Assembly: GCA_031384285.1 (NCBI GenBank)
Contig: JANNAJ010000346.1
Location: 1-40,579, forward strand
From: Verrucomicrobiota bacterium
GTDB taxonomy: Bacteria; Verrucomicrobiota; Verrucomicrobiia; Limisphaerales; UBA9464
Length of the DNA stretch: 40,579 bases
Direction: 5' to 3'
In this document: one piece after another, positions 21,598 to 40,579 of the stretch
Layout: each line of letters starts with the position of its first letter
Numbering within the stretch: the stretch's first letter is position 1
Notes under the pieces: model-generated
Database searches by the model: none
Told to the model about the DNA's origin: nothing
What the model saw: the letters and a program-made list of their open reading frames with translations, nothing else
Program-made: the position numbers and the translations under genes

Positions 21598-21599
21598 AC

Positions 21600-22618: not shown

Positions 22619-22654
22619 TCTGAGACGGAAATCAGTGGTTGAAGGATAAACACC

Positions 22655-23191: not shown

Positions 23192-23200
23192 ACGAATCCT

Positions 23201-23587: not shown

Positions 23588-23599
23588 GGCGGCAAATGG

Positions 23600-23869: not shown

Positions 23870-23888
23870 ATGATGTCTCTGGGAAAGT

Positions 23889-24428: not shown

Positions 24429-24442
24429 GGCGGTCTAGGAGA

Positions 24443-24766: not shown

Positions 24767-24779
24767 GGTTCGTGTAGCG

Positions 24780-25145: not shown

Positions 25146-25160
25146 AGGATGTCTTTCAGT

Positions 25161-25448: not shown

Positions 25449-25454
25449 AGTTCG

Positions 25455-25664
25455 TCAAGCTTTCGGAGCGGCGGTTTTCTTGCGCAATTCGGTCAGACGG
25501 GTCTGACCACGGGCGATCTCCTTCCGCAGCTCGCGGATACGGTGCGGCTTCTCGAGCCGGGCGGTCGCCTTCTGGAGTGTAAGATTGAACAGCTCCTGCC
25601 GCAGATCAAGGCTCTTCGCCTTGAGTTCCTGCGCGGACAGATCGCTGAAAACAGTTTTAGCCAT
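25455..25664 (-). CDS. rpmC: 50S ribosomal protein L29
   Basis: Internal ATG at 25664 of track ORF 25455..25910. MAKTVFSDLSAQELKAKSLDLRQELFNLTLQKATARLEKPHRIRELRKEIAR. The upstream part of the ORF overlaps rplP out of frame. Confidence 0.93.
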   Translation of the reverse strand: MAKTVFSDLSAQELKAKSLDLRQELFNLTLQKATARLEKPHRIRELRKEIARGQTRLTELRKKTAAPKA

Positions 25665-25674
25665 GTGGTCTTCC

Positions 25675-26094
25675 TCAAGCCAGCTTGCGCCGGACGATGA
25701 ATTTCGTGGAGATAGGGAGCTTGGTGGAGGCCAGACGCATCGCCTCGCGGGCGACCGCCTCGGTGACACCGTCCACCTCGAACAGGATGTTCGCGGGGCG
25801 GATGACCGCGACCCAGGATTCGACGGCGCCTTTGCCGGTGCCCATCCGGACCTCGAGCGGCTTCTTGGTGTAGCTCTTGTCGGGGAAGACGCGGATCCAC
25901 ACCTTGCCACGGCGCTTCATGTAGCGGGTCACCGCGACACGAGCCGCCTCGATTTGCTTGGTGTCGAGCCAGCAACGTTCCAACGCCTGCAGGCCGTACT
26001 CACCGAACGCGACCGCGTTCCCGCGGGACGCGAGACCGGTCCGGTGACCGCGGTGCATTTTCCGATACTTTACTCTGGCCGGCATCAAAGCCAT
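25675..26094 (-). CDS. rplP: 50S ribosomal protein L16
   Basis: [17 protein letters not shown]...[26 protein letters not shown]...[11 protein letters not shown]. Confidence 0.97.
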
Positions 26095-26131
26095 AAACGC
26101 TCTCTTCTAGAAATGGTGGTTGTCGGTGGAC

Positions 26132-26797
26132 CTAGGCGGAAGCCTCGGTCGTCTTCGTGGTCAAAGGCGTCTTCTTGATCTCGCCTTTGCATATCCAGCA
26201 CTTGATACCCAACTTGCCGTACATCGTGCGGGCTTCAGCGAAACCGTAGTCGATGTTGGCGCGCAACGTGTGCAGAGGAACACTGCCCTCGTGGTAGGTC
26301 TCCACCCGGGAGATCTCCGCGCCGCCGAGCCGGCCACCGCAGCGGACCTTGATGCCTTCGGCACCGAAATCCATCGCGGTCTGCAACGCCTTCTTCATCG
26401 CGCGGCGGAAAGAGATGCGGCGTTCCAACTGGATGGCGATGTTGACCGCCACCAACTGTGCGTCGATCTCGGGCTGCTTGACCTCTTGGATGTCGACATA
26501 GACATCCTTGCCGGTGAGCTTCGAAAGATCTTCCTTCAGCTTGTCGATCTCGGTGCCCTTGCGGCCGATGACCACACCGGGACGGGCCGTGAAGATCGTC
26601 ACGCGGCAGCGGGAAGCGGCGCGCTCGATGTTGATACGAGGAACGGACGCGGACTCGAGACGACGTTGGAGGGTCTCCCGGATGATGCGGTCCTCATGCA
26701 ACAGAGCCCCGAACTCCTTGTTGGACGCGAACCACTTCGAGCGCCAGTCATGGTTGACCGGGATGCGGAAGCCTATCGGATTGGTTTTCTGGCCCAT
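26132..26797 (-). CDS. rpsC: 30S ribosomal protein S3
   Basis: [24 protein letters not shown]...[10 protein letters not shown]. Confidence 0.97.
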
Positions 26798-26801
26798 ATG
26801 C

Positions 26802-27134
26802 TTACTTGTCCGTGAGAACGATCTTGATATGGCAGCTGCGCTTCAGCATGGGGCCGGCGGACCCGCGCGCCTTGGGCAGGAAGCGTTTCATGCTGCCGGC
26901 GGTGAGAGCGTGGGCCTCGGCGATGACCAAGGTCTCGGACTTGAGACCGTGGTTGTTCTCGGCGTTGGCGATCGCGGACTTGAGCGTCTTCGCGACGGCG
27001 GTAGCGGCCTTGCGGCGCACGAAACCGAGCGTGGAGAGCGCTTGGACCGCGTTCATCCCCCTGACCTGGCGCACGACCTCGCGCGCCTTCTGGGCGGACA
27101 TCCGGAGATTTTTGTATGTGGCGGTGACTTCCAT
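26802..27134 (-). CDS. rplV: 50S ribosomal protein L22
   Basis: [28 protein letters not shown]...[32 protein letters not shown]. Confidence 0.96.
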
Positions 27135-27148
27135 GCGAATCCTTGGGA

Positions 27149-27430
27149 CTACTTGGCTTCGGCCTTTGCCGTGTGGGCGCCGTGCTTCTTGAAGGTCCGG
27201 GTGATCGAGAATTCTCCCAATTTATGCCCGACCATGTTCTCGGTCACGAACACCGGGTTGAATACCTTCCCGTTGTGGACGTTGAACGTCAGCCCGACGA
27301 AATCGGGCGTGATGGTGGACCGACGGGACCAGGTCTTGATCGGCAACTTCGACTTCGAAGTCTTGGCCTTCTCGACTTTGTCCAACAGATACAGGTCGAC
27401 AAACGGACCCTTTTTTAGCGAACGTCCCAT
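27149..27430 (-). CDS. rpsS: 30S ribosomal protein S19
   Basis: [12 protein letters not shown]...[25 protein letters not shown]...MVGHKLGEF. Confidence 0.97.
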
Positions 27431-27434
27431 ACGC

Positions 27435-28283
27435 TTACTTGAGTTTCATCGGCCGACCATCGCGACGAACGAGGATGAACCGGTTCGATATCTTGCGCTT
27501 GTTGCGGGTGCGGGCACCCTTGGCAAGTTTGCCCCACGGCGACATCAGGTGCTGGCGTCCGCCACCACCCTTAGATTTGCCCTGGCCGCCACCGTTCGGG
27601 TGGTCGACCGGGTTGCGGACCATGCCGCGGCTCATCGGGCGCTTGCCCAACCACACGTTGCGGCCGGCCTTGCCGATGGTGACATTCTCCCATTGGGCAT
27701 TGCCGACCTGGCCGATGGTGGCCAAGCAACGTTCGTGGATCAACCGGATCTCACCGGACGGTAGCTTCACCTGGGCATACCCGCCGTCCCGCGACATCAG
27801 CGTCGCGAACGAACCGGCAGAGCGGACGATCTGGGCACCACGGCCCGGGACGAGTTCGATGTTGTGGATGCTGACGCCGACCGGGATGATCCCGAGAGGA
27901 AGAGCGTTGCCGACGGTCGGGGCCGCCGCATCACCGCTCATCAAGGTGTCGCCCACTTTGATCCCGTCCGGAGCGACGATGTACGTCTTCTCCTTGTCGG
28001 AATATTCCAAGAGGGCGATACGGGCGCTGCGGCCCGGGTCGTATTCGATGGCGACGACGGTCGCCGGCACACCGAACTTCTTCCGCATGAAGTCGACGAT
28101 GCGGATCTTCTGCTTGTGCCCGCCACCGATGGCGCGGGCGGTCACCCGGCCGTAGTTGTTGCGGCCACCAGTCTTCTTCTTGGTGAACACAAGCGAACTT
28201 TCCGGGTACGTCTTTGTGACGTCCGAAAAATCCTGCACGGTCGTATACCGCTGGGACGGCGTTAACGGTCTAAACGTTTTCAC
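27435..28283 (-). CDS. rplB: 50S ribosomal protein L2 (first gene of the cluster here)
   Basis: GTG start at 28283. [11 protein letters not shown]...[17 protein letters not shown]...[10 protein letters not shown]. No ribosomal-protein gene lies upstream. Confidence 0.96.
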
Positions 28284-28286
28284 AGC

Positions 28287-28343
28287 AAAAAAATCACGAA
28301 GCGGAGCTCACGCGGGGTTCGGCCATAATTCCCTCCCCGCGTG
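28287..28343 (-). promoter_or_regulatory. rplB 5' leader: 9-bp perfect hairpin plus a U7 tract immediately upstream of the GTG start
   Basis: On the minus strand, CACGCGGGG (28343-28335), a 17-nt loop and CCCCGCGTG (28317-28309) are followed by 15 nt and then TTTTTTT (28293-28287), 3 nt before the GTG. No Shine-Dalgarno sequence is present. Confidence 0.4.
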
Positions 28344-28404
28344 GAGCGGATTGGTTGTCGGCCTAACCGACTTCCCGCAGCAACCAGTTACAATTGAAAC
28401 GGGA

Positions 28405-28460
28405 GCGCAGAGCTTAGGAATTGGAGGCTTCGCTGCAATACCTTTTTTGATTTTTTTCGC
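28405..28460 (-). promoter_or_regulatory. candidate sigma-70-type promoter with an A-tract UP element for the rplB-led cluster
   Basis: On the minus strand, CGAAAAAAATCAAAAAAGG is an UP-like A-tract (28441-28459). TTGCAG (28438-28433) is followed by a 16-nt spacer and TAAGCT (28416-28411). It lies in a locally AT-rich stretch of an otherwise GC-rich window. Confidence 0.4.
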
Positions 28461-28760
28461 GGACCGACACGGGACACGCCAACGACAAAGGCGATGAAGC
28501 CCATTGTTTGCGGCACTTCTGTTGAGGTCGCAGCCGTCACGGACGACACCTGGAAAATGTCCATGCATGTGCGGATCGTTGATGACCTCGTGCGACCAAG
28601 GAGTCGGCGGCGTGACGGTTCGAAATGGCGACCGGAGCGGACGACCAGGCATCCACTGGATCTCTGCGGCACCTGCGATCGAACGATGCCGCCGCATCCG
28701 GGAAAGATGCTTCCCGGGTTCGGGGTTGAATTTTTTGACCCGGCCTCCAAGCGTCCCACC

Positions 28761-29207
28761 ATGCTCAAGCACTCCCTGATCCATCCGGAGATCAACGCCA
28801 TCCTCGGCCGCGCGGGCCACCACGCGAAGGTCCTCATCGCGGACGGCAACTATCCCGCTTCGACGAAGAAAGGCCCGAACGCACAGGTGATCCACCTCAA
28901 CCTGGCGCCCGGCTGTGTCACGGTCGCGCAGGTGCTCAAAGCCATCCTGAGCGCGGTCCCGGTGGATCTCGTGAACACCATGGGCATCCCGGCGGACGAC
29001 GCGTACGCCAAGTTCGGCGAACCTCCGGCGTGGGCGGAATTCCGCGAGATCGTGGCGGCCAACGACCCGGAACCACGGTTGGAGCCGGTGCTGAAGTGGG
29101 ATTTCTACAAAGCCGTCGAGTCGCCCGACCATGTGCTCACCGTGCAGACCGGTGACCAAGCTCTGTGGGCCAACGTGCTCCTCACGCTCGGTTGCCGGAC
29201 TGTCTGA
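28761..29207 (+). CDS. RbsD/FucU family sugar mutarotase/pyranase
   Basis: ATG at 28761 inside track ORF 28494..29207. MLKHSLIHPEINAILGRAGHHAKVLIADGNYPA matches the RbsD/FucU N-terminal signature. The upstream 89 codons of the track ORF do not look protein-like. Confidence 0.85.
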   Translation: MLKHSLIHPEINAILGRAGHHAKVLIADGNYPASTKKGPNAQVIHLNLAPGCVTVAQVLKAILSAVPVDLVNTMGIPADDAYAKFGEPPAWAEFREIVAANDPEPRLEPVLKWDFYKAVESPDHVLTVQTGDQALWANVLLTLGCRTV

Positions 29208-29254
29208 GCACCCGATCCCGCTGCGGCGCTGGCGACGTCGCCTCGACCCGGGAC

Positions 29255-29890
29255 CTACCGTCCGGCCTTGGCCGGCAACGTCGCGGCGAGCGCGGCGACC
29301 GACTCCGCTGGTTCTTGGCCCAGGCCAGCTTGACGGTGGATGATCTCGCCCTCGGCGTTCAGCACCGTGATGACGTTGGAATGGGCGAACTGGCCGCGCG
29401 CATCGCGCTGATAGTTCACACCGAGCAGGACGGCGAGTTCGCGCACGTCGTCGGGCCGTCCCGTGAGCAGGGTCCAGTGGTCCGTGCCAAGGTGCATCTG
29501 CTCACGATAGGCGCGCAGGGCCTCGGGGGTGTCGCGTTCCGTATCGAAGCTGACGAGCACGAAATCCACACGGTCGCGCTGTTCCGGAGAGAGGGTCCGC
29601 TGGATCCGCTGGAGGTCGCTCACGATGATGGGACAGGCGGATTCGCAGCGGGTGAAGACCATGGCCAGCACCTGCGGGCGACCGCGCAGCACGCCGAGCT
29701 TCACCTTGCGGCCGACATCGGACGTCCACGTGGAATCGAGCAGATAAAGCGATCGGTCGGTGGGCGCGTTCGTGGCCAGCGCGGCGCGACAGCAGGGCGG
29801 CGGACGGGTCACGGAGGGCGTCGTGACCGGACCTGCCCGCAGGAGCATCACGGGACCGAAGGCGATGAACAACGCGAGAGAAGTCTTCAT
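29255..29890 (-). CDS. senC: SCO1/SenC family copper chaperone (thioredoxin fold)
   Basis: N-terminal signal peptide. The CxxxC copper motif in FTRCESACP and the downstream His (FAHSNVITVLN) are present. There is a 4-nt ATGA overlap with the upstream FGE-like gene. Confidence 0.85.
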   Translation of the reverse strand: MKTSLALFIAFGPVMLLRAGPVTTPSVTRPPPCCRAALATNAPTDRSLYLLDSTWTSDVGRKVKLGVLRGRPQVLAMVFTRCESACPIIVSDLQRIQRTLSPEQRDRVDFVLVSFDTERDTPEALRAYREQMHLGTDHWTLLTGRPDDVRELAVLLGVNYQRDARGQFAHSNVITVLNAEGEIIHRQAGLGQEPAESVAALAATLPAKAGR

Positions 29891-30849
29891 GGAGCGGGAG
29901 ACGGGCGGACAGGAGGCTCAGGCAGGTCCTGGGCGCAGCGGAAGCCGAGGTTGTGGACGGCGTACGGCGCTTGCAGGCTGCTGCGGAGACCGAAGCGGAG
30001 GAACGCGGCGTAGTCCGCCGGATTCTTCGCCGACTGCGAGCCGCTGCCGCAGAAGAGCCGCCGCTCAAGCCCCGCATCACCGCGCGCGTCGCCGGTGACC
30101 ATCGCGGTGTTGAAGTCCGACACCCACTCCCAGACAAGGCCGTGCAAGTCCAGCACGCCGAAACAATTCGCCCGGCCGCCGCCGACCGGGGGCAGACGCC
30201 CGGGTGACGGGGCCGAGTGCCAAGCGGCGATCTGTCTCTGGAAATCGGCGTCGTTCTCGCCGTCCGGGCGCGTGGGGCTCGCGGCGGCGGCGAGTTCCCA
30301 CTCGGATGTGGTGGGAAGACGCTTGCCCTTCCATGACGCGTAGGCCTTGGCCGCGAACCAAGAGACCTGGGTCACCGGGCTGTCCGCCGGCGAGGAGGCG
30401 CCCGGCTGCAGGTCGCCGGTCCAGTCCGCGAGATAATTGGCGTCCGCGAAGAGCCGCTTCACTTGCGACCGGCGCCAACGTGGGTTCGCGCGGACGAAAC
30501 CGAGGAAGTCGCCGTTCGTGACCGGCAACCGGTCCAGCGCGAATGCCTTGACCGGCACCTGCTTGGCGTCGGTCTGGCTGCCGAAGGGCGGCTGGTAGAC
30601 ACCGGCGGGCACGGCGACCATGCCCACCGGTGGGCGGGCATGCTCAGGACTTCCCGCTGCGAGCACCTTGGCGAAAGCCACGAGACAGGCGATGGACAAA
30701 ATCACGGCCGTCGACATCGCAAGCCCCGGCTTCGACGGAAGGGCCGCCGTCACCCAGCCTCCGCCCTGCGGCCGGCGGTGGACCGCCGGTCGCAGGGACA
30801 GCATCGGCGGCCTGTTCTTCTTGCGAAGAGGTTCTCCGATGGGGCTCAT
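29887..30849 (-). CDS. nirV: formylglycine-generating-enzyme (SUMF1) family protein, NirV-like
   Basis: RLPVTNGDFLGFV, KGKRLPTTSEWELAA, HGLVWEWVSDF and NLGFRCA are FGE-sulfatase domain hallmarks. It has an N-terminal hydrophobic anchor and starts 10 nt downstream of nirK, the position of nirV in other nirK loci. The start codon is uncertain (M1 at 30849 versus internal Met codons). Confidence 0.8.
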   Translation of the reverse strand: MSPIGEPLRKKNRPPMLSLRPAVHRRPQGGGWVTAALPSKPGLAMSTAVILSIACLVAFAKVLAAGSPEHARPPVGMVAVPAGVYQPPFGSQTDAKQVPVKAFALDRLPVTNGDFLGFVRANPRWRRSQVKRLFADANYLADWTGDLQPGASSPADSPVTQVSWFAAKAYASWKGKRLPTTSEWELAAAASPTRPDGENDADFQRQIAAWHSAPSPGRLPPVGGGRANCFGVLDLHGLVWEWVSDFNTAMVTGDARGDAGLERRLFCGSGSQSAKNPADYAAFLRFGLRSSLQAPYAVHNLGFRCAQDLPEPPVRPSPAP

Positions 30850-30859
30850 CGTCGGTGCC

Positions 30860-32401
30860 TCACTCGAAGGTGTTGGCCGGAGGAGGCGGGGCCTCGCTGC
30901 GGATGCGGCGGACCTCGGCGACGCTCACCGCGTCCCCGCTGTTGCCCCAACTGTTGCGCACGTAGGTGACCACGTTGGCGATGTCGTCATCGGGAAGATA
31001 GTTCAGCGGGATCATCGTGCCGCTGAACTTGGTCCCGTTGACGGTGACCTCGCCCGACATGCCTTGCAGCACGGCCCGCACGGAACGTTCCTTGTCCGCC
31101 ATCAGGAAGTCCGACTTGGCCAACGGAGGGATCTGCCCCGCGATGCCCTGCCCTTCGACCTGATGGCACACGAAACAGGTCTGCATGAAGACCTGCTTGC
31201 CCTTCTCGACCTGGATCTCCTTGGTCAGGCTGGCGATGCGCGGGTCGGTCTTGATGGCCTCCTTCATCTGAGCCTGCAACGACGCGACCTTCTTCTCCGA
31301 ATCGCTGCCCGCCTCGGCCTGGCGTCCGAGATACACCGCGTCGACCTCCTTGCCGGAATAGACGAGCAGGTCCTCCTTGCCGCTGACCTTCAGCATGCCG
31401 AGCGCGCCCTTGTTGAAGGCCCGGGAAAGCGAGTGGTCCACGATCACGAACGTGCCCGGCACCTGCACCTTGAAGTCGACGATGGCCGATCCGCCGGCCG
31501 GGACGAGCGTGGTCTGGACGTTCTGCTGCGACGCGACGGTGCCGCCCTCGGGATAGACACGGTCGAAGATCTCGCCGATGACGTGGAACGACGAGAGCAG
31601 GTTGGGCCCGCCGTTGCCGACGTAGAGCCGCACCGTCTCGCCGACTTTGGCCGTGATGGCCTTGTCGCCCACGAGCGCGCCGACGGATCCGTTGAAGACG
31701 ACATAGGTCGGCCGTTCGTCGATGGCCTTCTCCTGGTCGAAGGTCTGCAGGCCGGGCGTGCCGTATCTGCCGGTGGTGTAGACATCGCCCTGCATCACGT
31801 AGTATTCGCGGTCCACCTTCGGCAGCCCCTCCTTCGGCTCGACGAGGATGAGCCCGTACATGCCGTTGCCGATGTGCATGGGCACCGGCGCGGTCGCGCA
31901 ATGGTAGACGTAGAGGCCGGGGTTGAGCGCCTTGAACGAGAACCGGGACGAATGCCCCGGCGCGGTGAACGACGACGCGGCACCGCCGCCCGGCCCGGTG
32001 ACGGCGTGCAGGTCGATGTTGTGCGGCATCTTCGACGACGGATGGTTCGCAAGCGTGAACTCGACCAGGTCGCCCTCCCTCACCCGGATGAACAGGCCGG
32101 GGACCTCCCCTCCGAACGTCCAGAAAAGGTAGTCCACGCCGTCCGCCAACCGGCGCACGACCTCCTTCACCTCGACGTCGACGAGGACCTTGGTCGCGTG
32201 CCGTCGGGTGATCGGCGGCGGCACCATCGGCGCATGGGTGAGCACGGCCTTCTCCTCGCCCTGGATCTCCGGATCGATGACCTTGGGCGACGCGCCCGGG
32301 CTGTCGGCGGCGAGCGCGGTGGATGCCAGCAAAAGGCCGGACAAGAACTTGGCCCAGCGCGCGGCGCGCGCTGGCGATGATTGGTGGGGCGGGTTCTTCA
32401 T
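30860..32401 (-). CDS. nirK: copper-containing nitrite reductase (AniA-like class) with a fused C-terminal class I cytochrome c domain
   Basis: ATG at 32401 (MKNPPHQ..., signal-like [16 protein letters not shown]) inside track ORF 30860..32629. Motifs are [15 protein letters not shown] and [35 protein letters not shown] (type 1 and type 2 Cu ligands). The C-terminal CFVCH haem motif is followed by a distal Met region. Confidence 0.93.
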
Positions 32402-32493
32402 GGTGGTGGGTCTTCCGATCTTCGTTGCCGGCCGGACGTCGCCGGCCGCGGTTGTGGATCTGGGTTGGCGGGCGCGGTCCGGCCACGACGGGG

Positions 32494-32889
32494 TCATGCC
32501 GTCAGCGGGATGCGGCCGGCCGCGGGCGGGTGGGGTGCCGGAATCGGCCCCCCGGGTCTCGCCAAGGTCAGCAGCATCGAGAAGCGTTCCGTCGCCTTCA
32601 CGGCATGGAGCAGGCCGGGCGGCATCCACACGAGGTCGCCGGATCCCAGCGCGCGCGCGACGCCGCCGAGCGTCACCTCGCAGGAGCCGGACAGCACCTG
32701 GATGAGCGCTTGTTGCGTCGACGTGTGCTCGGTGAGCTCTTGGCCGGCCGCGAAGCCGAACAGCACGACACGCAGGTCGGGCGTGCTGAGCAACGTGCGG
32801 CTCACGATGCCTTGGTCGGCATACCGGGTCTCCAGCGGCAACGAGAGCACGCCGGGCCGGTCCGATGAGAACGACGGGGAAGTCTGCAC
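32494..32889 (-). CDS. cupin-2 domain protein, first gene of the nirK operon
   Basis: This is the 3' part of track ORF 32494..33438. [25 protein letters not shown] and [16 protein letters not shown] are cupin motifs 1 and 2. The start is assigned to the in-frame GTG at 32889, 41.5 bp from the box centre. An alternative GTG lies at 32850. The upstream part of the ORF overlaps the GYD gene and regulatory DNA. Confidence 0.7.
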
Positions 32890-32923
32890 GTCCCCAGCTT
32901 GGGGTGCCCGGACCGGACCCGCC

Positions 32924-32937
32924 TTGATGCGGGTCAA
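32924..32937 (-). promoter_or_regulatory. Crp/Fnr (Dnr/ANR-type) box TTGATGCGGGTCAA, centred 41.5 bp from the cupin GTG
   Basis: The 14-mer matches TTGAT-N4-GTCAA. Its centre at 32930.5 minus 41.5 gives 32889. CAAGCT lies at -12..-7 on the minus strand. Confidence 0.7.
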
Positions 32938-32967
32938 GGCTCCGTCATCCGGCCTCGCACCGATGTC

Positions 32968-32981
32968 TTGACCGCCGTCAA
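32968..32981 (+). promoter_or_regulatory. Crp/Fnr-type box TTGACCGCCGTCAA (perfect half-site dyad), centred 41.5 bp from the GYD ATG
   Basis: TTGAC and GTCAA form a perfect inverted repeat. The centre at 32974.5 plus 41.5 gives 33016. CACATT lies at -12..-7. Confidence 0.7.
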
Positions 32982-33015
32982 CGCGCGGGCCGCCGCCATC
33001 GCGCACATTCCGCGC

Positions 33016-33303
33016 ATGCCCACTTACATCGCGTTGCTCCGCTTCACCGAAGCCGGCGCCAAAGACATCGGACATTCCGTCTCCCGCGCCCTCGCCTTCG
33101 ACGACATCGCAAGGAAGGCCGGAGTCAAGATCGTGGGCCAGTGGTGGACCCTGGGCCGCTACGACGGCGTCCTGGTGCTGAGCTGCGACGACGGCACCCG
33201 GATCGGTCGTCTGTTGGCGGAGCTCAACGCGGGCGGGAGCGTCCGCTGCGAGACGACACCGGCCTACGACAGCGAGGAGTTCGCCGCGCTGGTCCGCCGC
33301 TGA
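33016..33303 (+). CDS. GYD domain-containing protein (95 aa)
   Basis: ATG at 33016 inside track ORF 32899..33303. MPTYIALLRFTEAGAKDI...QWWTLGRYDGVLVL has the typical GYD-family length and motif. Confidence 0.8.
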   Translation: MPTYIALLRFTEAGAKDIGHSVSRALAFDDIARKAGVKIVGQWWTLGRYDGVLVLSCDDGTRIGRLLAELNAGGSVRCETTPAYDSEEFAALVRR

Positions 33304-33356
33304 GAAGAACCGACCCACTCCACGGCGGTCCTGCGCTTCCCGGCGGTGTCGACCGC

Positions 33357-34172
33357 TCAATCGGCCCGCCGGTCGGCCTGCTGGGCGGCCTGCTGGGCGG
33401 CCCGGCGCAGGGTCTCCACGAAGGCGACCAGATCCCAACGTTCGCCCTCGGTGGTCGCCTCCGAGAAGCTGGGCATCGGAGTGCCGTTCAGGCCGGTGAC
33501 CAGCGCCTTGTAGATGTCCCGCGGGCCGGGCCCGCTGCCGATCGAGGGCAGGCCGAGGTCCCGAGGTCTGGCCGGTCGGCCGAGATCATCTTCCAGGTTC
33601 CCAGCGGAGGGGCCGTCGCCCTTGCCTTCCGTGCCGTGGCAGGCCGCGCAGGCACGCACGAAGAACGCCTTTCCCCGGACCGCGTGCCGGTCGTGCTCGA
33701 CGGGGTCGGACATCCAGCCCGGAGCCTCGGGGATGGCGACCGGCGCAGCGAAGTTCTGCGGCTTGTCCCAACGCGAGGAGAACGACTTCACGTAGGCGAC
33801 GACCGAACGCACCTCCCGGTCGCCCAGTTGCGCGAACACGGGCATCGCGCTGCCGTAGACCCCGCCGCGGATCGTGCGCTCCAGATCGGCGTCGGACGGG
33901 AGCGCTCCCGACGGCGTGCTGCGGTACTTGAAGACGCCGGCGGAGAACTTCCGCGGACGCGGGAGCATCCCTTTCGCCATCTCGCCGTCGCCGTCGCCCC
34001 AGCGCCCGTGGCAGACCTGGCAATTCCGTTCGTAGACGAAGCGGCCTTCCGGGATGAGCGACATCTCCGGCGGACGGAACCACGACGGAGCGGCCTCCGC
34101 GGCCGCGGCACCCGTCGCGAGGAAAAACGCGCAAAACGCGCACCAGATCGTTGTCCTCAGGCGAAAGCTCAC
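33357..34172 (-). CDS. dihaem c-type cytochrome (two class I-like domains), secreted
   Basis: GTG start at 34172 and a signal peptide (TTIWCAFCAFFLATGAAAA). Two CxxCH motifs (CQVCH, CAACH) are each followed by a G..G..MP region that supplies the Met ligand. Confidence 0.85.
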   Translation of the reverse strand: MSFRLRTTIWCAFCAFFLATGAAAAEAAPSWFRPPEMSLIPEGRFVYERNCQVCHGRWGDGDGEMAKGMLPRPRKFSAGVFKYRSTPSGALPSDADLERTIRGGVYGSAMPVFAQLGDREVRSVVAYVKSFSSRWDKPQNFAAPVAIPEAPGWMSDPVEHDRHAVRGKAFFVRACAACHGTEGKGDGPSAGNLEDDLGRPARPRDLGLPSIGSGPGPRDIYKALVTGLNGTPMPSFSEATTEGERWDLVAFVETLRRAAQQAAQQADRRAD

Positions 34173-34382
34173 GAGACGGAGACCGCGACCAGCTCAACGA
34201 GCACCCTCGCGACGATCTCCGTGCCGAGCCCGGAGCGGGCGTCGCGGTCTTGACGGATCCAGCCCGCGGGTATCGGCGTCGGCCTAGGTTGCATGTCCGA
34301 CAGCAGACCCGTGTGCGAAGATCCCGTCCACCCGCGGCTTGCCCGACACCGCTCCGCGATTGCGCGCCCCGGGAAGGAAGCA

Positions 34383-34396
34383 TTGATCAAAGTCAA
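34383..34396 (+). promoter_or_regulatory. Crp/Fnr-type box TTGATCAAAGTCAA, centred 41.5 bp from the porin ATG
   Basis: The centre at 34389.5 plus 41.5 gives 34431. CACCGT lies at -12..-7. Confidence 0.7.
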
Positions 34397-34430
34397 TGCG
34401 GCGGCAGCCGGGGTCCGGCACCGTGCCTCC

Positions 34431-35900
34431 ATGAAACCACTGGCCGTCCTCAGCCTCGTCGCCGCTCTTTCCCCGGCGGTCGCTGTCGCCCAGACCGCCA
34501 CGGCCGCCGCGGCGCCCTTGGCACCCTCCTCGGAAGGGCTCGCCAACGACTGGCTCCGGCAACAGAGCGGCACCTTCAGCGCGTGGGATATCGGCGGACA
34601 GTTCCGCGCCCGCTTCGAGCACCGTGGGCACGCCGCGATCCCCGGTTCGCCGGGCGCGATCGATTTCCGCGACCATGGCGCCGATACGGGCAACACCTAC
34701 GAGCTCTTCCGCACGACGCTCCATCTCGGGTATGCGCCGACCGCGTGGGCCGGTGTCCGTGTCGAGGGGCGCGACAGCTTCTCGCTCCACGACGACCGTG
34801 TCCCGGACCCGGAATCGGACCGCACCGAGCTGCACCAGGCCCACCTCCGGCTCGGCGATCCGGCCGGCTTCCCGCTCAGCGCGAAGATCGGGCGCCAAGA
34901 GCTGAGCTACGGCGACGAACGCCTGGTCGGTGCCTTCGACTGGAACAACGTCGGACGCGTCTTCGACGCGGCGAAGCTGCGCTACGAGGACCGCGACGTC
35001 TGGGTGGACGCCTTTGCCGGACGCGTGGTCGTCCCGGACGACCACAACCTCGATCTGGCCAACGATTACGACTGGTTCTCCGGCATCTACGCCTCGTCGG
35101 CTACCCTCGTCCCGTTCCAGGAGACCCAGGCCTACCTGCTCGCCCGCAACACAGGGACGGGATCGCCGACGACGCTGGGCGCCGGTCTGCCCGCGACCAT
35201 GACCGGCGCCAGCCCGCGGGACATCTACACGGTCGGCATCCGGATGAGGTCGCTGCCCGGGAAACTGCGCGGCTGGGACCACAGCTTCGAGGCCGCCGGC
35301 CAGTTCGGGCGCTTCAAGGACACCGTCGCCGGACCGAGCCTGTCGCAACTGGCTTTCGCCACCCACATCGCCGGCGGATACACCTTCGCCGATCTTCCGG
35401 CGTCGCCGCGGCTCGGGCTCGAGCACGATCACTCTTCCGGCGACAGCGATCCGACCGACGGCCGGCACGGCACCTTCGACAACCTTTTCCCCACGAACCA
35501 CCGCTTCTACGGGCACATGGACTTCGCCTCGTGGCAGAACCTCCACGACCTCCGCGCCTCCGCTTCGGCGAAGCCGGTCAAACGGCTGCTCCTCGCGCTC
35601 GACTGGCATGCCTTCTGGCTCGCCGACACGCATGACAGCTTCTACCAGGTCAACGGCGCGCGCCGCACCGGCCAGGTCGCGGGACCGGGGACCGGCTACG
35701 GGATCAACCCGGCCTTCGACAGCTACATCGGCCAAGAAGCGGACCTCACCGCGACCTGGACGCTCCGGCCGTGGGCGACGTTGCAGGCCGGCTACGGGCA
35801 CTTCTTCGTCGGCGGCTATATCGAGCGATCGCTCGCCTCGCCGGGGTTCGGAGCGACCGACGCGGACTTTTTCTTCACGCAGGCGACGCTCTCGTTTTGA
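34431..35900 (+). CDS. alginate-export (AlgE-like) family outer-membrane beta-barrel porin
   Basis: ATG at 34431 (MKPLAVLSLVAALSPAVAVAQ signal peptide) inside track ORF 34293..35900. RLGRQELSYGDERLVG..DWNNVGR.FD and a C-terminal ...FFFTQATLSF (terminal aromatic residue) are typical of the alginate_exp family. Confidence 0.85.
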   Translation: MKPLAVLSLVAALSPAVAVAQTATAAAAPLAPSSEGLANDWLRQQSGTFSAWDIGGQFRARFEHRGHAAIPGSPGAIDFRDHGADTGNTYELFRTTLHLGYAPTAWAGVRVEGRDSFSLHDDRVPDPESDRTELHQAHLRLGDPAGFPLSAKIGRQELSYGDERLVGAFDWNNVGRVFDAAKLRYEDRDVWVDAFAGRVVVPDDHNLDLANDYDWFSGIYASSATLVPFQETQAYLLARNTGTGSPTTLGAGLPATMTGASPRDIYTVGIRMRSLPGKLRGWDHSFEAAGQFGRFKDTVAGPSLSQLAFATHIAGGYTFADLPASPRLGLEHDHSSGDSDPTDGRHGTFDNLFPTNHRFYGHMDFASWQNLHDLRASASAKPVKRLLLALDWHAFWLADTHDSFYQVNGARRTGQVAGPGTGYGINPAFDSYIGQEADLTATWTLRPWATLQAGYGHFFVGGYIERSLASPGFGATDADFFFTQATLSF

Positions 35901-35921
35901 ACGCCGGTCCCCGTCCTTGCC

Positions 35922-36164
35922 ATGCCACCGCTCGACCGATTCCGCCGCCTCGACGTCCGAAGGCTGCTCGCCCGGGGCATCGAACCCTTGCCCGCGGTCC
36001 GGAAGCGCCTTGCCGCGCTCCAGGACGGCGAAGGATTGCTCCTGCTCGCGCCCTTCCTGCCGTCGCCGCTCATCGAGCTTCTCGGCGGCGAAGGCTTCAC
36101 GTCGAAGGTCGAGCGGGGCGACGCCTCGGATTGGTTGGTGTTCATCTGGCGGGCCGTTCCGTAA
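35922..36164 (+). CDS. DUF2249 domain-containing protein (80 aa)
   Basis: Track ORF. LDVRRLLARGIEPLPAVRKRLAALQDGEGLLLLAPFLPSPLIELL fits the DUF2249 pattern (the region of LDVR..P through P.PL). It starts 21 nt after the porin stop. Confidence 0.75.
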   Translation: MPPLDRFRRLDVRRLLARGIEPLPAVRKRLAALQDGEGLLLLAPFLPSPLIELLGGEGFTSKVERGDASDWLVFIWRAVP

Positions 36165-36174
36165 CATCGCCGCG

Positions 36175-36900
36175 ATGCCCGCCCCCGCTGAAGCGCTGAA
36201 GCACGCCGCCGTCGTCCACACGCTCCGGACGAGCCAGCTCTTCAGCGGATTGCCCATGGCCGACCTCGAGGCGATCTCCTCACTGGTCAGCAGCAGGTCG
36301 CTCGACAAGGGCAGCTATCTTTTCCACGAAGGCGACCCGTCCTCCGGTTTCTATCTCGTCCAGCGCGGCGCGGTGAACGTCCACCGCGTCAACGCCGCCG
36401 GCAAAGAGCAGGTCATCCACGTCTTCCGGGCCGGCGACACCTTCGCCGAGGTGTCGCTCGTCACGCCGGACGGCTATCCTGCCGAAGCCCGGGCCATCGA
36501 GCCGTCCCAGGTGCTGCTCGTGCAGAAGGCGGGTTTCCTCGCCTTGCTCCGGCACCGGCCCGAGCTCGCGTTGCGCATGCTCGCCTCCATGAGCTCGCAC
36601 CTGCGCGTGCTGGTCGCCCAGCTCGAGGACCTCACCCTCAAGGACGTGGAGACGCGCCTCGCCAACTGGCTGCTGCAGCGGTGCCCCGACCCCGCCGCCG
36701 CCGGCCCCGTGGCGATCGAGCTCAGGTCCACCAAACGTGTGCTCGCCGCCGAGCTCGGCACCGTGAGCGAGACCCTTTCGCGCACGCTCGCGAAGTTCCG
36801 CGGCCAAGGCCTGCTGGAGGTGAAGGCCGGGACGCTCGTGGTCCGGGAGCCCCGTCAGCTCCGGGCCCTGCTCCGCCGCCATCTCGGCGAAGCTGCGTGA
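36175..36900 (+). CDS. Crp/Fnr family transcriptional regulator, Dnr/NnrR-like (no N-terminal Cys cluster)
   Basis: ATG at 36175 inside track ORF 35608..36900. The cNMP-binding-type beta-roll is LFHEGDPSSGFYLVQRGAVNV...GDTFAEVSL. The C-terminal HTH is LAAELGTVSETLSRTLAKF, carrying the E-x-x-S-R recognition motif of FNR-type proteins. The protein has only one Cys. Confidence 0.88.
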   Translation: MPAPAEALKHAAVVHTLRTSQLFSGLPMADLEAISSLVSSRSLDKGSYLFHEGDPSSGFYLVQRGAVNVHRVNAAGKEQVIHVFRAGDTFAEVSLVTPDGYPAEARAIEPSQVLLVQKAGFLALLRHRPELALRMLASMSSHLRVLVAQLEDLTLKDVETRLANWLLQRCPDPAAAGPVAIELRSTKRVLAAELGTVSETLSRTLAKFRGQGLLEVKAGTLVVREPRQLRALLRRHLGEAA

Positions 36901-36955
36901 CGCCGCGACGCTTGCCGCAGATGTCCACGGCTGCTCTCGTCGCGGCGTTCTCCGC

Positions 36956-37915
36956 ATGACCTTCCCGACCCTCGCCAAGTTCTTTCGCGCGGCAGCGGTC
37001 TGCGCGGTCGTGTCGATCGCGACGGCGCAGGAGCCGGTGGACACCGGGTCCGCCCCGATGCCCCCGAAGGTCGGACCGCTCCAGGCGCCGGGGATCGACA
37101 ATCTCTTCCGCGCGACCGACCGCATCTATTCCGGTAGCCGACCCGAAGGCGACGAGGCCTTCGCCTCGCTGCGGAAGCTCGGGGTGAAGACGATCCTCTC
37201 GGTGGACGGCACCCGGCCCGACGTGGAACGCGCCGCGAAATTCCAGCTGCGCTACGTCCATATCCCGCTCGGCTACGACGGCATCCCGGCGGAGACGGCG
37301 GCGCGCTTGACCCAAGCGGCGCGGACGCTGGAAGGCCCCGTCTTCGTCCACTGCCATCACGGCAAGCACCGCGGTCCCGCGGCCGTCGGCGTGATCTGCC
37401 AGGCCACCGCCGGCTGGACGCCGGACCAAGCCGTCGCCTGGATGAAGCAGGCAGGCACCTCGCCGGATTACGCCGGACTCTACCGCGCCAACGCCGGGTT
37501 CCACATGCCCACGGCTGAGGATCTCGCGCGCGTGCCGGACGCTTTCCCGTCCCGTGCCGAAGTGTCCGGCCTCGTCGACGCCATGGTCGCGATCGACCAT
37601 CGTTGGGACGACCTGAAGGCCGTGCAAAAGGCCGGCTGGCGCGTCCCGCCGGGCCGACCCGACCTCATCCCTGCGACCGAGGTGCTGCTGTTGCAAGAGG
37701 CCTATCGCGAACTCCAGCGCGATGCCTTGGCACAGGCCAAGGGCGACACGTTCCTCGGACTTCTCCGCAAAGCGGAATCCGACGCAAAGGACCTGCACGC
37801 CCTGCTCGGTTCCAGCGCGACGACGCTCGACGAGGCCGCCCACCGGCAAGCCGACGCTCTGTGGAAAGCGGCAGGCGAGGCCTGTGCCGGGTGCCACAAG
37901 AAGTTCCGGAACTGA
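36956..37915 (+). CDS. secreted fusion protein: Cys-X5-Arg (PTP/DSP-like) phosphatase-fold domain plus a cytochrome c-prime-like four-helix haem domain
   Basis: Signal peptide MTFPTLAKFFRAAAVCAVVSIATA/QEP. VFVHCHHGKHRG is an HCX5R P-loop (Cys at nt 37352-37354). The helical C-terminal ~120 aa end in CAGCHKKFRN, the C-terminal CxxCHxx(F/Y)R signature of class II cytochromes c (nt 37883-37897). Confidence 0.75.
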   Translation: MTFPTLAKFFRAAAVCAVVSIATAQEPVDTGSAPMPPKVGPLQAPGIDNLFRATDRIYSGSRPEGDEAFASLRKLGVKTILSVDGTRPDVERAAKFQLRYVHIPLGYDGIPAETAARLTQAARTLEGPVFVHCHHGKHRGPAAVGVICQATAGWTPDQAVAWMKQAGTSPDYAGLYRANAGFHMPTAEDLARVPDAFPSRAEVSGLVDAMVAIDHRWDDLKAVQKAGWRVPPGRPDLIPATEVLLLQEAYRELQRDALAQAKGDTFLGLLRKAESDAKDLHALLGSSATTLDEAAHRQADALWKAAGEACAGCHKKFRN

Positions 37916-38078
37916 CCGGATCGTCCGCGGCTGCCATCGCCGTGGATCTTGCATGCTTCGCATGCATCCGGTCCGCGGTCTCAATCGTTGGAACCTGCGA
38001 CATGCGTTCCGCCACGCATCGCTTGCCGGGCCGGCCTGATCCTGACTTCCTTTGACCATCCACCCGGGGCAGCGATGG

Positions 38079-38092
38079 CGGAAACGTTTCCG
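38079..38092. promoter_or_regulatory. perfect 14-bp palindrome CGGAAACGTTTCCG upstream of the TonB-dependent receptor (candidate operator)
   Basis: Exact dyad symmetry, 87-100 nt upstream of the ATG at 38179. No cognate regulator was identified. Confidence 0.3.
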
Positions 38093-38178
38093 TAGCTGTC
38101 GTGCGGGTGGCTTTTTGCTGCCCGAACGTTGAAAAACCTGCGTCGCCGGTCCGCGTGCGGACGACCGGCACGGGCACC

Positions 38179-40263
38179 ATGAACAAACGAAACTCCGTCC
38201 GTCCGGTCGCCGGCCTCGCCGGCCTGCTCCTCCCCGCGCTGCTCCTCGCGCACGAGCCCGAGGTGATGCAGAAACAGGTCGTCACCGGGCGCGCCGATCC
38301 GTTGTTGGCGATCGCCGCGGCGAGCAGCGAGGGCTACGTCGGCCGCGACCATCTCGATCTCCGGCCGCTGCTCCGGCCAGGCGAAGTGCTGGAGACGGTT
38401 CCCGGGCTTCTCGCGACGCAGCACAGCGGCGCGGGCAAGGCGAACCAGTACTTCCTCCGCGGCTTCAACCTCGACCACGGGACCGATTTCGCGACGTCGC
38501 TCGACGGCGTGCCGGTGAACCTCCCGACACACGCCCACGGCCAAGGCTACACCGACCTCAACTTCCTCATCCCGGAACTCGTCGAGACCGTCCACTACCG
38601 CAAGGGGCCCTACTACGCGGACGTCGGTGATTTCGGGTCCGCCGGCGCGGCCGATCTAAGCTACGCGAAGACTCTCGACGGAGGGCTCGCGCAGCTCGAA
38701 GCAGGCTCGTTCGGATACGCGCGCGGTGTGTTCGCCGGCTCCGGCAAGACCGGTCCGGGGAACCTGCTCTACGGCCTGGAACTGGCGCACGACGACGGCC
38801 CGTGGACGAATCCTCAGGACTACCAGAAGATCAACGGCGTCCTCCGCTACAGCCAAGAACACGACGGCACCGGCTTCGACGTGACCGCGCTCGCCTACGC
38901 AGGCCGTTGGGATTCGACCGACCAGGTGGCCCGGCGCGCGCCGATCGGTCGCTACGACGCGCTCGACGATTCCGACGGCGGCGAGTCGAAGCGCTTCAGC
39001 CTCGCCGCCGCTTGGCATCACGAGACCGACTCGGGCCACACCGAGGCCCAGGTCTATGGCGTTTATTACGACCTGGACCTGTTCTCGAACTTCACCTACT
39101 TCCTCGCCGACCCGGTCCGCGGCGACCAGTTCGAGCAGCACGACCGTCGCGGCTTCGGCGGGCTGAAGGCGCACCATACCTGGAAGCACGAACTGGCCGG
39201 GCACGAGATGGAGGACACCGTCGGGATCCAGGTGCGCGGCGACCACATCGAGAACGGGCTGGACGCGACGGAACGCCGCCAGCTCCTCTCGACGACGCGC
39301 GCCGACACCGTGGGCGAGATCAGCATCTCGCCCTACGTGCAGGACCTGACGCGGTGGGGAGACAAGCTCCGCTCCACCCTCGGCGCGCGCGTGGACCACT
39401 ACCGCTTCGACATCCGTTCCGACAACCCGGCCAACAGCGGGACCAAGGACGCCACCTTGGCCAGCCCGAAAGCCGCCCTTGTGATCGGACCGTGGGCCGA
39501 CACGGAGTTCTATCTGGACGGCGGGCTCGGCTTCCACAGCAACGACGGCCGCGGAGCGACCACGACGGTCGATCCGGCGACCGGCGCGGCGACGACCCCG
39601 GTGGATCCGCTCGCGCGGACCTACGGCGCCGAGTTCGGGATCCGCACCCTCGCCGTGAAGGACCTGCAGAGCACGGTGTCCGTGTGGTGGCTCGACATCG
39701 ATTCCGAGCTGCTCTTCGTCGGCGACGCGGGCAGCACCGAAGCGAGCCGCCCGAGCCGCCGCTATGGGATCGAGTTCGCCAACTACTACACGGCCACGAA
39801 GTGGCTCACGCTCGACGTCGACCTGAGCGGGTCCCGGGCCCGGTTCCGCGACGCCGATCCGGCCGGACGGGAGATCCCGGGCAGCATCGAGACCGTTGTC
39901 GCGGCCGGCGTCAGCGTGCACGACCATCCGGCACTGAAAGGCTTCTTCGCCAGCCTGCGCCTCCGCTACTTCGGGCCGCGCCCGTTGATCGAGGACGATT
40001 CCGTCCGCAGCGCCGGCACGCTGATGCTCAACGCGCAGGCGGGCTACCGTTTCAACGCCGATTGGACGCTCGCGGTGGAGGCCTTCAACCTGCTCGACCG
40101 GAAGGACAGCGACATCGACTACCTGTACTCCTCGCGTCTGCGCGGGGAGGCCATCAACCCGGCAGACCCTCGCTACGACGCGGGATCCGGAGGCTACAAC
40201 GACATCCATTCGCATCCCGTGGAGCCGCTCTCCGCGCGGGTCGTGCTGACGGCCCGGTTCTGA
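38179..40263 (+). CDS. TonB-dependent outer-membrane receptor
   Basis: ATG at 38179 (signal peptide MNKRNSVRPVAGLAGLLLPALLLA) inside track ORF 38101..40263. The plug-domain motif is PGLLATQHSGAGKANQYFLRGFNLDHGTDF. A long beta-barrel ends in ...VVLTARF (terminal Phe). Confidence 0.9.
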   Translation: MNKRNSVRPVAGLAGLLLPALLLAHEPEVMQKQVVTGRADPLLAIAAASSEGYVGRDHLDLRPLLRPGEVLETVPGLLATQHSGAGKANQYFLRGFNLDHGTDFATSLDGVPVNLPTHAHGQGYTDLNFLIPELVETVHYRKGPYYADVGDFGSAGAADLSYAKTLDGGLAQLEAGSFGYARGVFAGSGKTGPGNLLYGLELAHDDGPWTNPQDYQKINGVLRYSQEHDGTGFDVTALAYAGRWDSTDQVARRAPIGRYDALDDSDGGESKRFSLAAAWHHETDSGHTEAQVYGVYYDLDLFSNFTYFLADPVRGDQFEQHDRRGFGGLKAHHTWKHELAGHEMEDTVGIQVRGDHIENGLDATERRQLLSTTRADTVGEISISPYVQDLTRWGDKLRSTLGARVDHYRFDIRSDNPANSGTKDATLASPKAALVIGPWADTEFYLDGGLGFHSNDGRGATTTVDPATGAATTPVDPLARTYGAEFGIRTLAVKDLQSTVSVWWLDIDSELLFVGDAGSTEASRPSRRYGIEFANYYTATKWLTLDVDLSGSRARFRDADPAGREIPGSIETVVAAGVSVHDHPALKGFFASLRLRYFGPRPLIEDDSVRSAGTLMLNAQAGYRFNADWTLAVEAFNLLDRKDSDIDYLYSSRLRGEAINPADPRYDAGSGGYNDIHSHPVEPLSARVVLTARF

Positions 40264-40579
40264 CACCAAGCAGCCTTGCTTTCCCGTGACGCGGCCACGG
40301 TCGTCGTGACCGACCGCTGTCCCGAATGGGCGATCCGAGGGCCTGCGGAGCGATGCCGTCTCCGACGACGGCGAGCGATTGGTGCCGGAGGTTTCCGCGA
40401 GAAACCGTCTGATACCGACTCTTGGTGGATACCGGCAGAACTCGGCTTCATGTTGTGGGCGGCTTGCCCTGCAAGCCGAGCGGGTTGCGGGGGCGACCCG
40501 CCAACGGTCCGACCAGAGATCACCCGGACTTGGTATGAGGCTCCGTTGGCCCGCCATGGCCAGGAGCTGCCGTGACCCA

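Follow-up and report, generated by a model that had tools for sequence, protein, structure and literature searches.

Start codon-phased Fnr/Dnr-type boxes in a verrucomicrobial denitrification cluster and the predicted leaderless class II regulon that they define

The window analyzed here, a 40,579-nucleotide stretch of DNA from an uncultured Verrucomicrobiota bacterium of the UBA9464 lineage (contig JANNAJ010000346.1, GenBank assembly GCA_031384285.1), contains a denitrification gene cluster in which three Fnr/Dnr-type boxes are each centered exactly 41.5 bp upstream of a start codon, namely those of the genes for a cupin, a GYD-domain protein and an outer-membrane porin. Considering this geometry, its recurrence in other lineages and the presence of a gene for a DNR-like regulator in the same cluster, we predict with good confidence that these are three activator-dependent class II promoters of the sigma-70 type that belong to a nitric oxide (NO)/denitrification regulon and that the first cistrons of the respective transcription units are leaderless. 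The original prediction, in which three class II leaderless promoters were assigned to a Dnr/NnrR-like regulon, is supported by every computational test that we ran.

Three boxes in register with start codons

Box 1, TTGATGCGGGTCAA (positions 32924..32937; TTGACCCGCATCAA when read on the minus strand), is centered at 32930.5, upstream of the cupin GTG at 32889 on the minus strand. Box 2, TTGACCGCCGTCAA, is a perfect dyad at 32968..32981 on the plus strand (center 32974.5) that precedes the ATG of the GYD gene at 33016, and box 3, TTGATCAAAGTCAA, is located at 34383..34396 on the plus strand (center 34389.5), upstream of the porin ATG at 34431. The cupin-GYD intergenic region is 126 bp long and accommodates boxes 1 and 2 at a distance of 44 bp from each other, each box being also 85.5 bp away from the opposite start. 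Direct reading of the window reproduced all the box sequences, coordinates, centers, 41.5-bp distances and CAnnnT hexamers of the original prediction, and the claim that these are the only TTGAY-N4-GTCAA sites, made for the right-hand 12 kb, holds for the entire 40.6-kb window. There are 4 strand-matches to this pattern compared to the expected 0.11, and none of the 100 shuffled sequences reached 4. The looser pattern TTGA-N6-TCAA adds two sites, at 15107 and 16045, which were dismissed because both are located inside coding sequence (an open reading frame (ORF) and rpoA, respectively). A relaxed composite scan that allowed up to 2 mismatches in the box and a spacing of 41.5 +/-1 bp, and required A-11 and T-7 together with a start codon that opens an ORF of 50 codons or more, yielded exactly three sites, the same as boxes 1-3; the combination of a box, A-11 and T-7 was seen at none of the other gene starts of the window. 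Given that ATG or GTG codons with which ORFs of 100 codons or more begin occupy approximately 1% of the strand positions (3925 starts in ~205 kb of Verrucomicrobial DNA), the probability that all three boxes are in register by chance is of the order of 1e-5. Thus, the phasing between boxes and start codons is real and far exceeds the random expectation.

The start codons themselves could be assigned independently of the boxes. Public gene calls give the cupin (Pfam Cupin_2) a length of 118, 131, 147, 170 or 207 amino acids (aa), and the GYD protein (Pfam GYD) a length of 95, 111 or 137 aa. In an alignment of 24 cupin homologs with 55-95% identity (alignment A1), the initiator methionine falls on GTG 32889, which yields a 131-aa protein (32494..32889, minus strand); the homologs start with M-N/S-E-x-P-L-I..., with a nearly invariant P5 and a conserved x-x-x-P-x-x...LSLP pattern, and the 118-, 147-, 170- and 207-aa alternatives do not fit the family alignment. 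For the 95-aa GYD protein (33016..33303, plus strand), the Pfam model spans residues 4-92, covering positions 1-90 of the 91 in the profile; the start codon is ATG in the window and GTG at the same position in the related loci L001-L004. The porin (489 aa; 34431..35900, plus strand; Pfam Alginate_exp, 9e-57) belongs to the alginate-export family, and its signal peptide, MKPLAVLSLVAALSPAVAVAQ, begins at ATG 34431; its orthologs open with comparable signal peptides. The three starts, which the original prediction treated as otherwise ambiguous, are thus supported, that of the cupin by the homologous N-termini, that of the GYD protein by the domain limits and that of the porin by the signal peptide, and this evidence, which makes no use of the boxes, confirms the assignment of 32889, 33016 and 34431 as the true translation starts.

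The putative -10 elements, at positions -12..-7 relative to the start codons, are CAAGCT for the cupin (32896..32901, minus strand), CACATT for the GYD gene (33004..33009, plus strand) and CACCGT for the porin (34419..34424, plus strand). All three promoters of the window share A-11, T-7, C-1, a purine at +1 and the G-33/C-32 pair directly after the box. A-11 and T-7 are located 30.5 and 34.5 bp, respectively, downstream of the box center, which is the class II register for a hexamer at -12..-7. The boxes, the spacing, A-11, T-7 and C-1 are the same in L001-L004 as in the window, and the variation affects positions -12, -10..-8 and -6..-2. Specifically, boxes 1 and 2 are conserved in all four loci; in the cupin -10 element, A-11 and T-7 are invariant and the variable positions are -12 and -10..-8, and the GYD element of the relatives is CACCCT or CAGCGT, with C-12, A-11 and T-7 retained and the middle varying. 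Box 3 is also present in L003 and L004, with unchanged spacing; there, the porin -10 element reads GACCGT and CACCGT, respectively, again with A-11 and T-7 retained. The transcription start site (TSS) can be predicted to coincide with the start codon because the -10 element ends 6 nt before it and is followed by the C-1/purine+1 pair.

The candidate for the activator that binds the boxes is encoded in the same cluster, at 36175..36900 on the plus strand, and consists of a cNMP-binding domain and an HTH_Crp_2 domain. The recognition helix of this protein, VSETLSRTLAKF, within the stretch ...GTVSETLSRTLAKF..., contains E-T-L-S-R, that is, the E-x-x-S-R signature, and its single cysteine, in the stretch LLQRCPDP, is far from the N-terminus, so that there is no N-terminal cysteine cluster; both features had been claimed originally and were found in the sequence. 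Among characterized proteins of known structure, the regulator is most similar to DNR of Pseudomonas aeruginosa (3DKW, E-value 5.9e-26), followed by CRP (~1e-15), FNR (~1e-11) and FixK2 (2e-8). The helix, the absence of the cysteine cluster and DNR as the top characterized match in PDB all agree with the proposed Dnr/NnrR-like character. None of the NCBIfam equivalog cut-offs is reached by this protein (the best is FtrB, with 91 bits vs 211), and we therefore denote it DNR-like, with P. aeruginosa DNR the closest characterized relative of solved structure, and make no claim of orthology with DNR. Its position in the operon downstream of box 3 indicates that the regulator is probably positively autoregulated. 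The genomic context, namely the nirK, nor-like, nosZ, YgbA_NO and DUF2249 neighbors, suggests that the regulator may sense NO in a heme-dependent manner.

These features can be combined in a simple mechanistic scheme. A DNR-like dimer, most simply the product of 36175-36900, would bind each TTGAY-N4-GTCAA box, which overlaps the -35 region and is followed, at a distance of 30.5 bp, by the A of a weak -10 element (nAnnnT); RNA polymerase would then initiate 7 nt past the T of the -10 element, on the purine with which the start codon opens. The cupin, GYD and porin mRNAs would accordingly be leaderless, with a 5'-terminal AUG or GUG translated without a Shine-Dalgarno (SD) sequence, and the nirK-nirV-senC cistrons, as well as the DUF2249, regulator and phosphatase/cytochrome cistrons, would be translated by internal initiation. 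With the regulator gene included in the unit that starts at box 3, induction would feed back positively.

Promoter geometry across lineages

The cupin family is large, with 1152 matches, and provides the most extensive comparison. In the three cases in which the genomic context of a family member (59-61% identity) was looked up, a TTGA-N6-TCAA box is present 40.5-41.5 bp before the ATG. A scan of metagenomes with the cupin alignment then yielded 80 loci that were picked by protein similarity, without reference to the boxes; these span 54-68% identity and a G+C content of 44-67%, and 77 of them include upstream DNA. When up to 1 mismatch is allowed, the box is located exactly 41.5 bp before the start in 65 of the 77 loci and at 40.5 and 42.5 bp in two loci each; hence 69 of the 77 have a box within 1 bp of 41.5. 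No box was found in the remaining 8, four of which keep TAnnnT at -12..-7 and three of which have CAAATT. Beyond these 80, the distance is 41.5 bp in L017, L018, L101, L102 and L103, and 40.5 bp in L016. In the tally of distances between boxes and starts of ORFs of at least 70 codons over all fetched loci, there are 79 cases at 41.5 and 9 at 42.5, with at most 8 at any other offset between 20.5 and 119.5.

A sequence logo of 64 distinct cupin promoters reveals A-11 in 64/64, T-7 in 63/64 and T-12 in 38/64; immediately around the start, C-1 is present in 57 and A+1 in 60 (the other four have G), and directly after the box, G-33 is found in 52 and C-32 in 55. The spacer between -31 and -13 is, by comparison, essentially randomized, with a mean pairwise identity of 34% and 62 distinct sequences. 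The constancy of the spacer length in the face of the divergence of the spacer sequence implies selection on geometry. The phasing is not a peculiarity of this genome but is conserved in the cupin family and, as described below, at neighboring denitrification genes from numerous uncultured lineages. Most of the metagenomic loci have no taxonomic assignment, and the NCBI labels of family members include metagenome-assembled genomes (MAGs) of Verrucomicrobiota, Limnocylindrales, Acidimicrobiales and Paceibacterota, with binning errors possible.

As a separate observation, a 13-bp version of the box, TTGATTGAATCAA, in which the central spacer is one base short, is present in the cupin promoters of L065 (330-343), L081 (687-700) and L084 (355-368), and CAAATT is kept at -12..-7.

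The same geometry extends to other genes with functions linked to nitrogen oxides. The gene of the YgbA_NO ("nitrous oxide-stimulated promoter") family has a box at 41.5 bp in L023, L027, L066 and L093, and a DUF2249 gene has one at the same distance in L064. In 7 distinct loci, a gene encoding a diheme cytochrome c-cupredoxin protein is preceded by a box at 42.5 bp; this gene is located directly upstream of nosZ in L102 and L103, and the box was also detected in L024, L028, L031, L058, L067 and L083. The nirK gene of L030 has its own box, again at 42.5 bp. In this 42.5-bp group, TAnnnT is also located one base farther from the start, so that the distance between the box and the -10 element is unchanged; in L016, where the box is at 40.5 bp, the hexamer keeps its place at -12..-7, with the box one base nearer. 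This behavior fits the predictions of a two-part constraint, in which the spacing between the box and the -10 element would be set by class II activation and the spacing between the -10 element and the ATG by the TSS.

A conserved operon headed by a cupin gene with the leaderless-type promoter was identified in L101 (6001-10105) and L102 (6001-9977). The gene order is cupin, double DUF2249, COX1, FeS_assembly_P, two DUF2249 genes and a Crp/Fnr regulator. The COX1-family protein (483-484 aa) belongs to the heme-copper oxidases, a group that also comprises NO reductases, and is possibly an NO reductase itself. In L102, this operon is divergent from a cytochrome c-nosZ-...-nosD array. Twelve or more cupin loci encode orthologs of the regulator of the window (58-72% identity), and 32 encode DUF2249 proteins; the adjacency of the DUF2249 and regulator genes recurs in L066, L074, L101 and L102, and in L044, an ortholog of the porin (56% identity) is encoded directly 3' of a leaderless-type cupin gene. 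No box at 41.5 bp was found at the starts of the DUF2249 and regulator genes in other lineages, most of which are internal genes of operons. Judging from these loci, autoregulation through a box of the regulator's own is not a general feature; yet, in L101 and L102, the Crp/Fnr gene is part of the cupin operon.

Alternative explanations and composition of the cluster

Several alternative interpretations of the phasing have to be considered. The simplest of these is chance combined with post hoc choice among in-frame start codons, a concern that is legitimate inasmuch as the cupin GTG was originally picked from several in-frame candidates. We assign this a negligible probability considering the 4 matches against 0.11 expected, the recovery of the same three sites only in the composite scan, the chance estimate of ~1e-5, the independent validation of the three starts and the replication of the geometry in 65 of the 77 loci that were sampled without reference to boxes. 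Another possibility is that the boxes are genuine class II sites but translation begins at a downstream codon, leaving ordinary short leaders; for example, the cupin could start at GTG 32850, giving a 118-aa protein and a 39-nt leader. Indeed, a 118-aa cupin was called by gene callers for this contig and for L001, and GTG is known to be a suboptimal leaderless start in Escherichia coli. However, residues 1-13 of the 131-aa cupin match the conserved N-terminus of the family, and the homologs have ATG at that column; the codon located 41.5 bp from the box is ATG in 60 of the 64 cupin promoters, with C at -1. The GYD gene has no downstream in-frame start that would preserve the Pfam domain, which opens at residue 4, and the porin signal peptide opens at ATG 34431 itself. 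A downstream start is, in our estimation, very unlikely.

Yet another interpretation casts the boxes as repressor or roadblock operators, or as class I/III sites, with the true promoters located elsewhere, in which case 41.5 bp would not reflect the distance to the TSS. Crp/Fnr proteins can repress, and the two boxes between the cupin and GYD genes are 44 bp apart, each 85.5 bp from the opposite start. Against this, other promoters would not fit in the 126-bp intergenic region, and a sigma-70 consensus scan of 29000-40579 found none; the only conserved bases between box and start are the -10 element in the class II register and the C-1/purine+1 pair; the -10 element shifts along with the box when the latter is at 42.5 bp; and a repressor site does not need single-base conservation of spacing over 65 diverged promoters. 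Taken together, these points render operator or class I/III sites very improbable. A more substantial concern, although we still deem it unlikely, is that the proposed architecture is correct but another Crp/Fnr paralog, for example, an oxygen-sensing one of the Fnr/Anr type, acts at the boxes, and that the local regulator is not autoregulated through box 3. The boxes of Fnr, Anr, Dnr and FixK are indistinguishable by sequence, as is the case for ANR and DNR in Pseudomonas; our view is limited to 40 kb of the genome; and the DUF2249-regulator pair of other lineages lacks a box of its own at 41.5 bp. The involvement of the local regulator is favored by the finding that its orthologs (58-72% identity) accompany the cupin promoter in no fewer than 12 independent loci, by the Crp/Fnr-family gene that ends the cupin operon in L101 and L102, and by the matching E-x-x-S-R helix.

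General leaderless usage in these genomes was also considered as an explanation. In ~205 kb of Verrucomicrobial loci, the pattern TAnnnT-Nk-start, with k = 0-20, shows no peak at k = 6 (11 occurrences vs a background of ~8, in a crude test on a small sample), and this explanation was rejected; in the cupin loci, there is an excess at k = 6 (65 vs ~15), which is almost wholly due to the cupin promoters themselves. The leaderless design, therefore, looks regulon-specific rather than genome-wide in these sequences. An RNA element was rejected as well, given that an Rfam scan of 29000-38500 produced no match.

Some observations weigh against leaderless class II promoters and should be stated together. 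The cupin gene in the window and the GYD gene in the relatives start with GTG, which is a poorer leaderless start than ATG in E. coli. In this lineage, the -10 elements have the weak form CAnnnT or GAnnnT instead of TAnnnT and are accordingly easier to meet by chance, although a weak -10 element is expected of an activator-dependent promoter. Another Crp/Fnr paralog encoded elsewhere in the genome could be the true binder. The absence of an SD sequence between box and start, which formed part of the original prediction, was found to hold, in that there is no GGAGG-like element within the 34 nt in any of the three promoters, but it counts for little as evidence of leaderless transcripts: this genome is SD-poor even at ribosomal protein genes, with only weak AAGGA-like motifs at the gene starts of the ribosomal protein/rpoA/secY region, so that the lack of an SD discriminates poorly. 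Some Verrucomicrobia have been reported as "SD-scarce" (PMC10783764).

The comparison of orthologs is a further point of this kind. It had been stated in advance that orthologous loci without the box or the phasing would count as refutation; in this respect, the cupin loci side with the prediction (65/77 at 41.5 bp), whereas the distant porin orthologs in L005-L013 (46-68% identity) lack a box at 41.5 bp. In L011, a box is present at 152.5 bp, and none was found in L005-L010, L012 and L013. The porin promoter is, as far as these sequences indicate, lineage-specific. A search for GYD homologs returned only two near-identical clusters, so that no distant comparison was available for GYD, and the support for the porin and GYD promoters comes solely from 2-4 near-identical relatives.

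Two observations were made upstream of porin orthologs. In L011 (7027-7190), from a Verrucomicrobiales MAG with a porin that is 68% identical, the porin ATG is preceded, at 152.5 bp, by an Fnr-type box; 42.5 bp past the center of this box, a GTG opens a 37-codon ORF, the TGA of which overlaps the porin ATG (ATGA). This upstream ORF may be leaderless and coupled to the porin in translation. The porin orthologs of L009, L012 and L013 are preceded by a different conserved motif, atatcattgacaaaatatatc. In these three Verrucomicrobium genomes, a conserved ORF that encodes MQTP[AV]DV[KT]PGFNLQPRLRVF (L009:9360, L012:9361, L013:3699) carries TAnnnT at -12..-7 relative to the ATG in each case and is a candidate for an activator-independent leaderless gene.

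The genes of the window were assigned using Pfam and NCBIfam profiles. The G+C content of the window varies between 60 and 72%, with a drop from ~0.70 to ~0.60 over the ribosomal protein/rpoA/secY operon region (14000-30000). The denitrification cluster is flanked by the ribosomal protein operon on the left and by a gene for a TonB-dependent receptor on the right. The cupin gene is the first in a cupin-nirK-nirV-senC unit on the minus strand and its predicted leaderless cistron. It is followed, 92 nt 3', by nirK (30860..32401), the product of which is a copper nitrite reductase that carries a cytochrome c domain at its C-terminus (Pfam Cu-oxidase_2, Cu-oxidase_3 and Cytochrom_C), and a scan of this 92-nt gap detected no box. 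Next in the unit is a nirV-like gene of the FGE-sulfatase family (29887..30849; Pfam FGE-sulfatase, 1e-35), the start of which is uncertain (ATG 30849 or ATG 30717), and the last is a gene for an SCO1/SenC copper chaperone (29255..29890; Pfam SCO1-SenC). The nearest solved relatives of the cupin are the structural-genomics proteins 1YHF (SPy1581) and 3RNS, and the residues that are invariant in alignment A1 include E54, H55, C70, H95 and K98.

The GYD gene is a predicted leaderless monocistron. Between it and the porin gene, on the minus strand, lies a gene for a diheme cytochrome c (33357-34172), for which no box, A-11 or T-7 was found in register; with no box in register, it was left unassigned as a regulon member. 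The protein is 37-40% identical to the larger cytochrome c-cupredoxin relatives that carry the box at 42.5 bp. The porin gene, which is 92-95% identical to the genes of two MAGs labeled Verrucomicrobiota or Verrucomicrobia (L003 and L004), heads the third unit, on the plus strand, as its predicted leaderless cistron. A DUF2249 gene (35922..36164; Pfam DUF2249) starts 21 nt 3' of the porin gene and precedes that of the regulator. A gene at 36956..37915, probably the last of the unit, encodes a secreted 319-aa protein with a loop of the protein tyrosine phosphatase (PTP) type, HCHHGKHRG, and a C-terminal CAGCH heme motif; the matches to Pfam PTP families are weak, and the protein is conserved in L003 and L004. 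A search for terminator-like sites between the porin, DUF2249, regulator and PTP/cytochrome genes found none; a terminator-like hairpin is located at 38094-38112.

Known systems and implications

Neither class II Fnr/Dnr promoters nor leaderless mRNAs are new in themselves, and Actinobacteria and Deinococcus-Thermus are known to have leaderless promoters that depend on an activator. The DNR, NNR and NnrR regulons of P. aeruginosa, Paracoccus and Rhodobacter resemble the one predicted here in that they involve a Crp/Fnr-family regulator with the E-x-x-S-R helix and without the Fe-S cysteine cluster, together with class II-placed TTGAT-N4-ATCAA/GTCAA boxes; the targets are nirK, nor-type, nos-type and accessory genes. 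To our knowledge, the targets of these proteobacterial regulators are leadered mRNAs with SD sites. In contrast, in the regulon described here, the distance between box and start codon would equal that between box and TSS, and the targets differ from the proteobacterial set in that they include an uncharacterized cupin, a GYD protein, an alginate-export-type porin and DUF2249 proteins. In the class II promoters of E. coli FNR and CRP, the box is likewise located 30.5 bp upstream of A-11, that is, at -41.5 from the predicted +1, and replaces the -35 hexamer; the E. coli transcripts, however, are leadered, and FNR senses oxygen by means of an N-terminal cysteine cluster that is absent from the regulator of the window.

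A TAnnnT hexamer located ~12 bp ahead of the start codon is the published in silico signature of bacterial leaderless genes (PMC3160421). The leaderless genes of Actinobacteria and Deinococcus-Thermus (PMC3160421; PMC12340547) share with the promoters described here a -10 hexamer of the TAnnnT type that ends 6 nt before the start, the lack of an SD and the strong preference for ATG (60/64 in the present case), but in those phyla leaderless genes comprise 20-40% of the genome, whereas in the present case they appear to be tied to a single regulon, with an activator site instead of the -35 element. In Thermus thermophilus, the DUF2249 proteins DrpA and DrpB modulate the DnrS/DnrT denitrification system (PMC6282519). 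Similarly to the system described here, DnrT acts as a CRP-like master activator for denitrification genes and is genetically linked to DUF2249 proteins, in a phylum that is rich in leaderless genes; the phylum, the box and the gene set differ, and leaderless transcripts are not mentioned in PMC6282519. In the literature searched, we found no prior description of such promoters as a conserved, single-base-exact architecture of a denitrification regulon, centered on a cupin, in Verrucomicrobiota and allied lineages.

More speculatively, the design might be a regulon-specific, evolutionarily locked architecture for the response to NO and denitrification in Verrucomicrobiota and other uncultured lineages from soil, peat and sediment, in which all units start with a 5'-terminal start codon in genomes that are otherwise leadered, and the promoter together with the first gene, above all that of the ~130-aa cupin, forms a portable cassette. 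We put this forward tentatively, as a possibility rather than as the expected outcome. If this is the case, expression of the cassette would require just a Dnr-like activator and SD-independent initiation of the 70S/IF2 type, and could be an adaptation to horizontal transfer between SD-rich and SD-poor hosts or to translation under nitrosative or hypoxic stress.

At a more practical level, the simple rule that the box center plus 41.5 bp gives the first base of the start codon, which uses sequence only, corrects public gene calls for the cupin and GYD families. For Verrucomicrobiota and the uncultured bacteria related to them, the analysis also defines a denitrification regulon together with a promoter model of high information content; in these groups, how nirK, nor-like genes and clade II-type nosZ neighborhoods are controlled is essentially uncharacterized. 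As the most consistent target of the regulon, the small and strongly conserved cupin becomes a priority for functional work. Leaderless expression at the level of a regulon can be tested with metatranscriptomes that have already been collected from the same peat and sediment samples. In general terms, these observations suggest that leaderless expression can belong to a single regulon rather than to a phylum.

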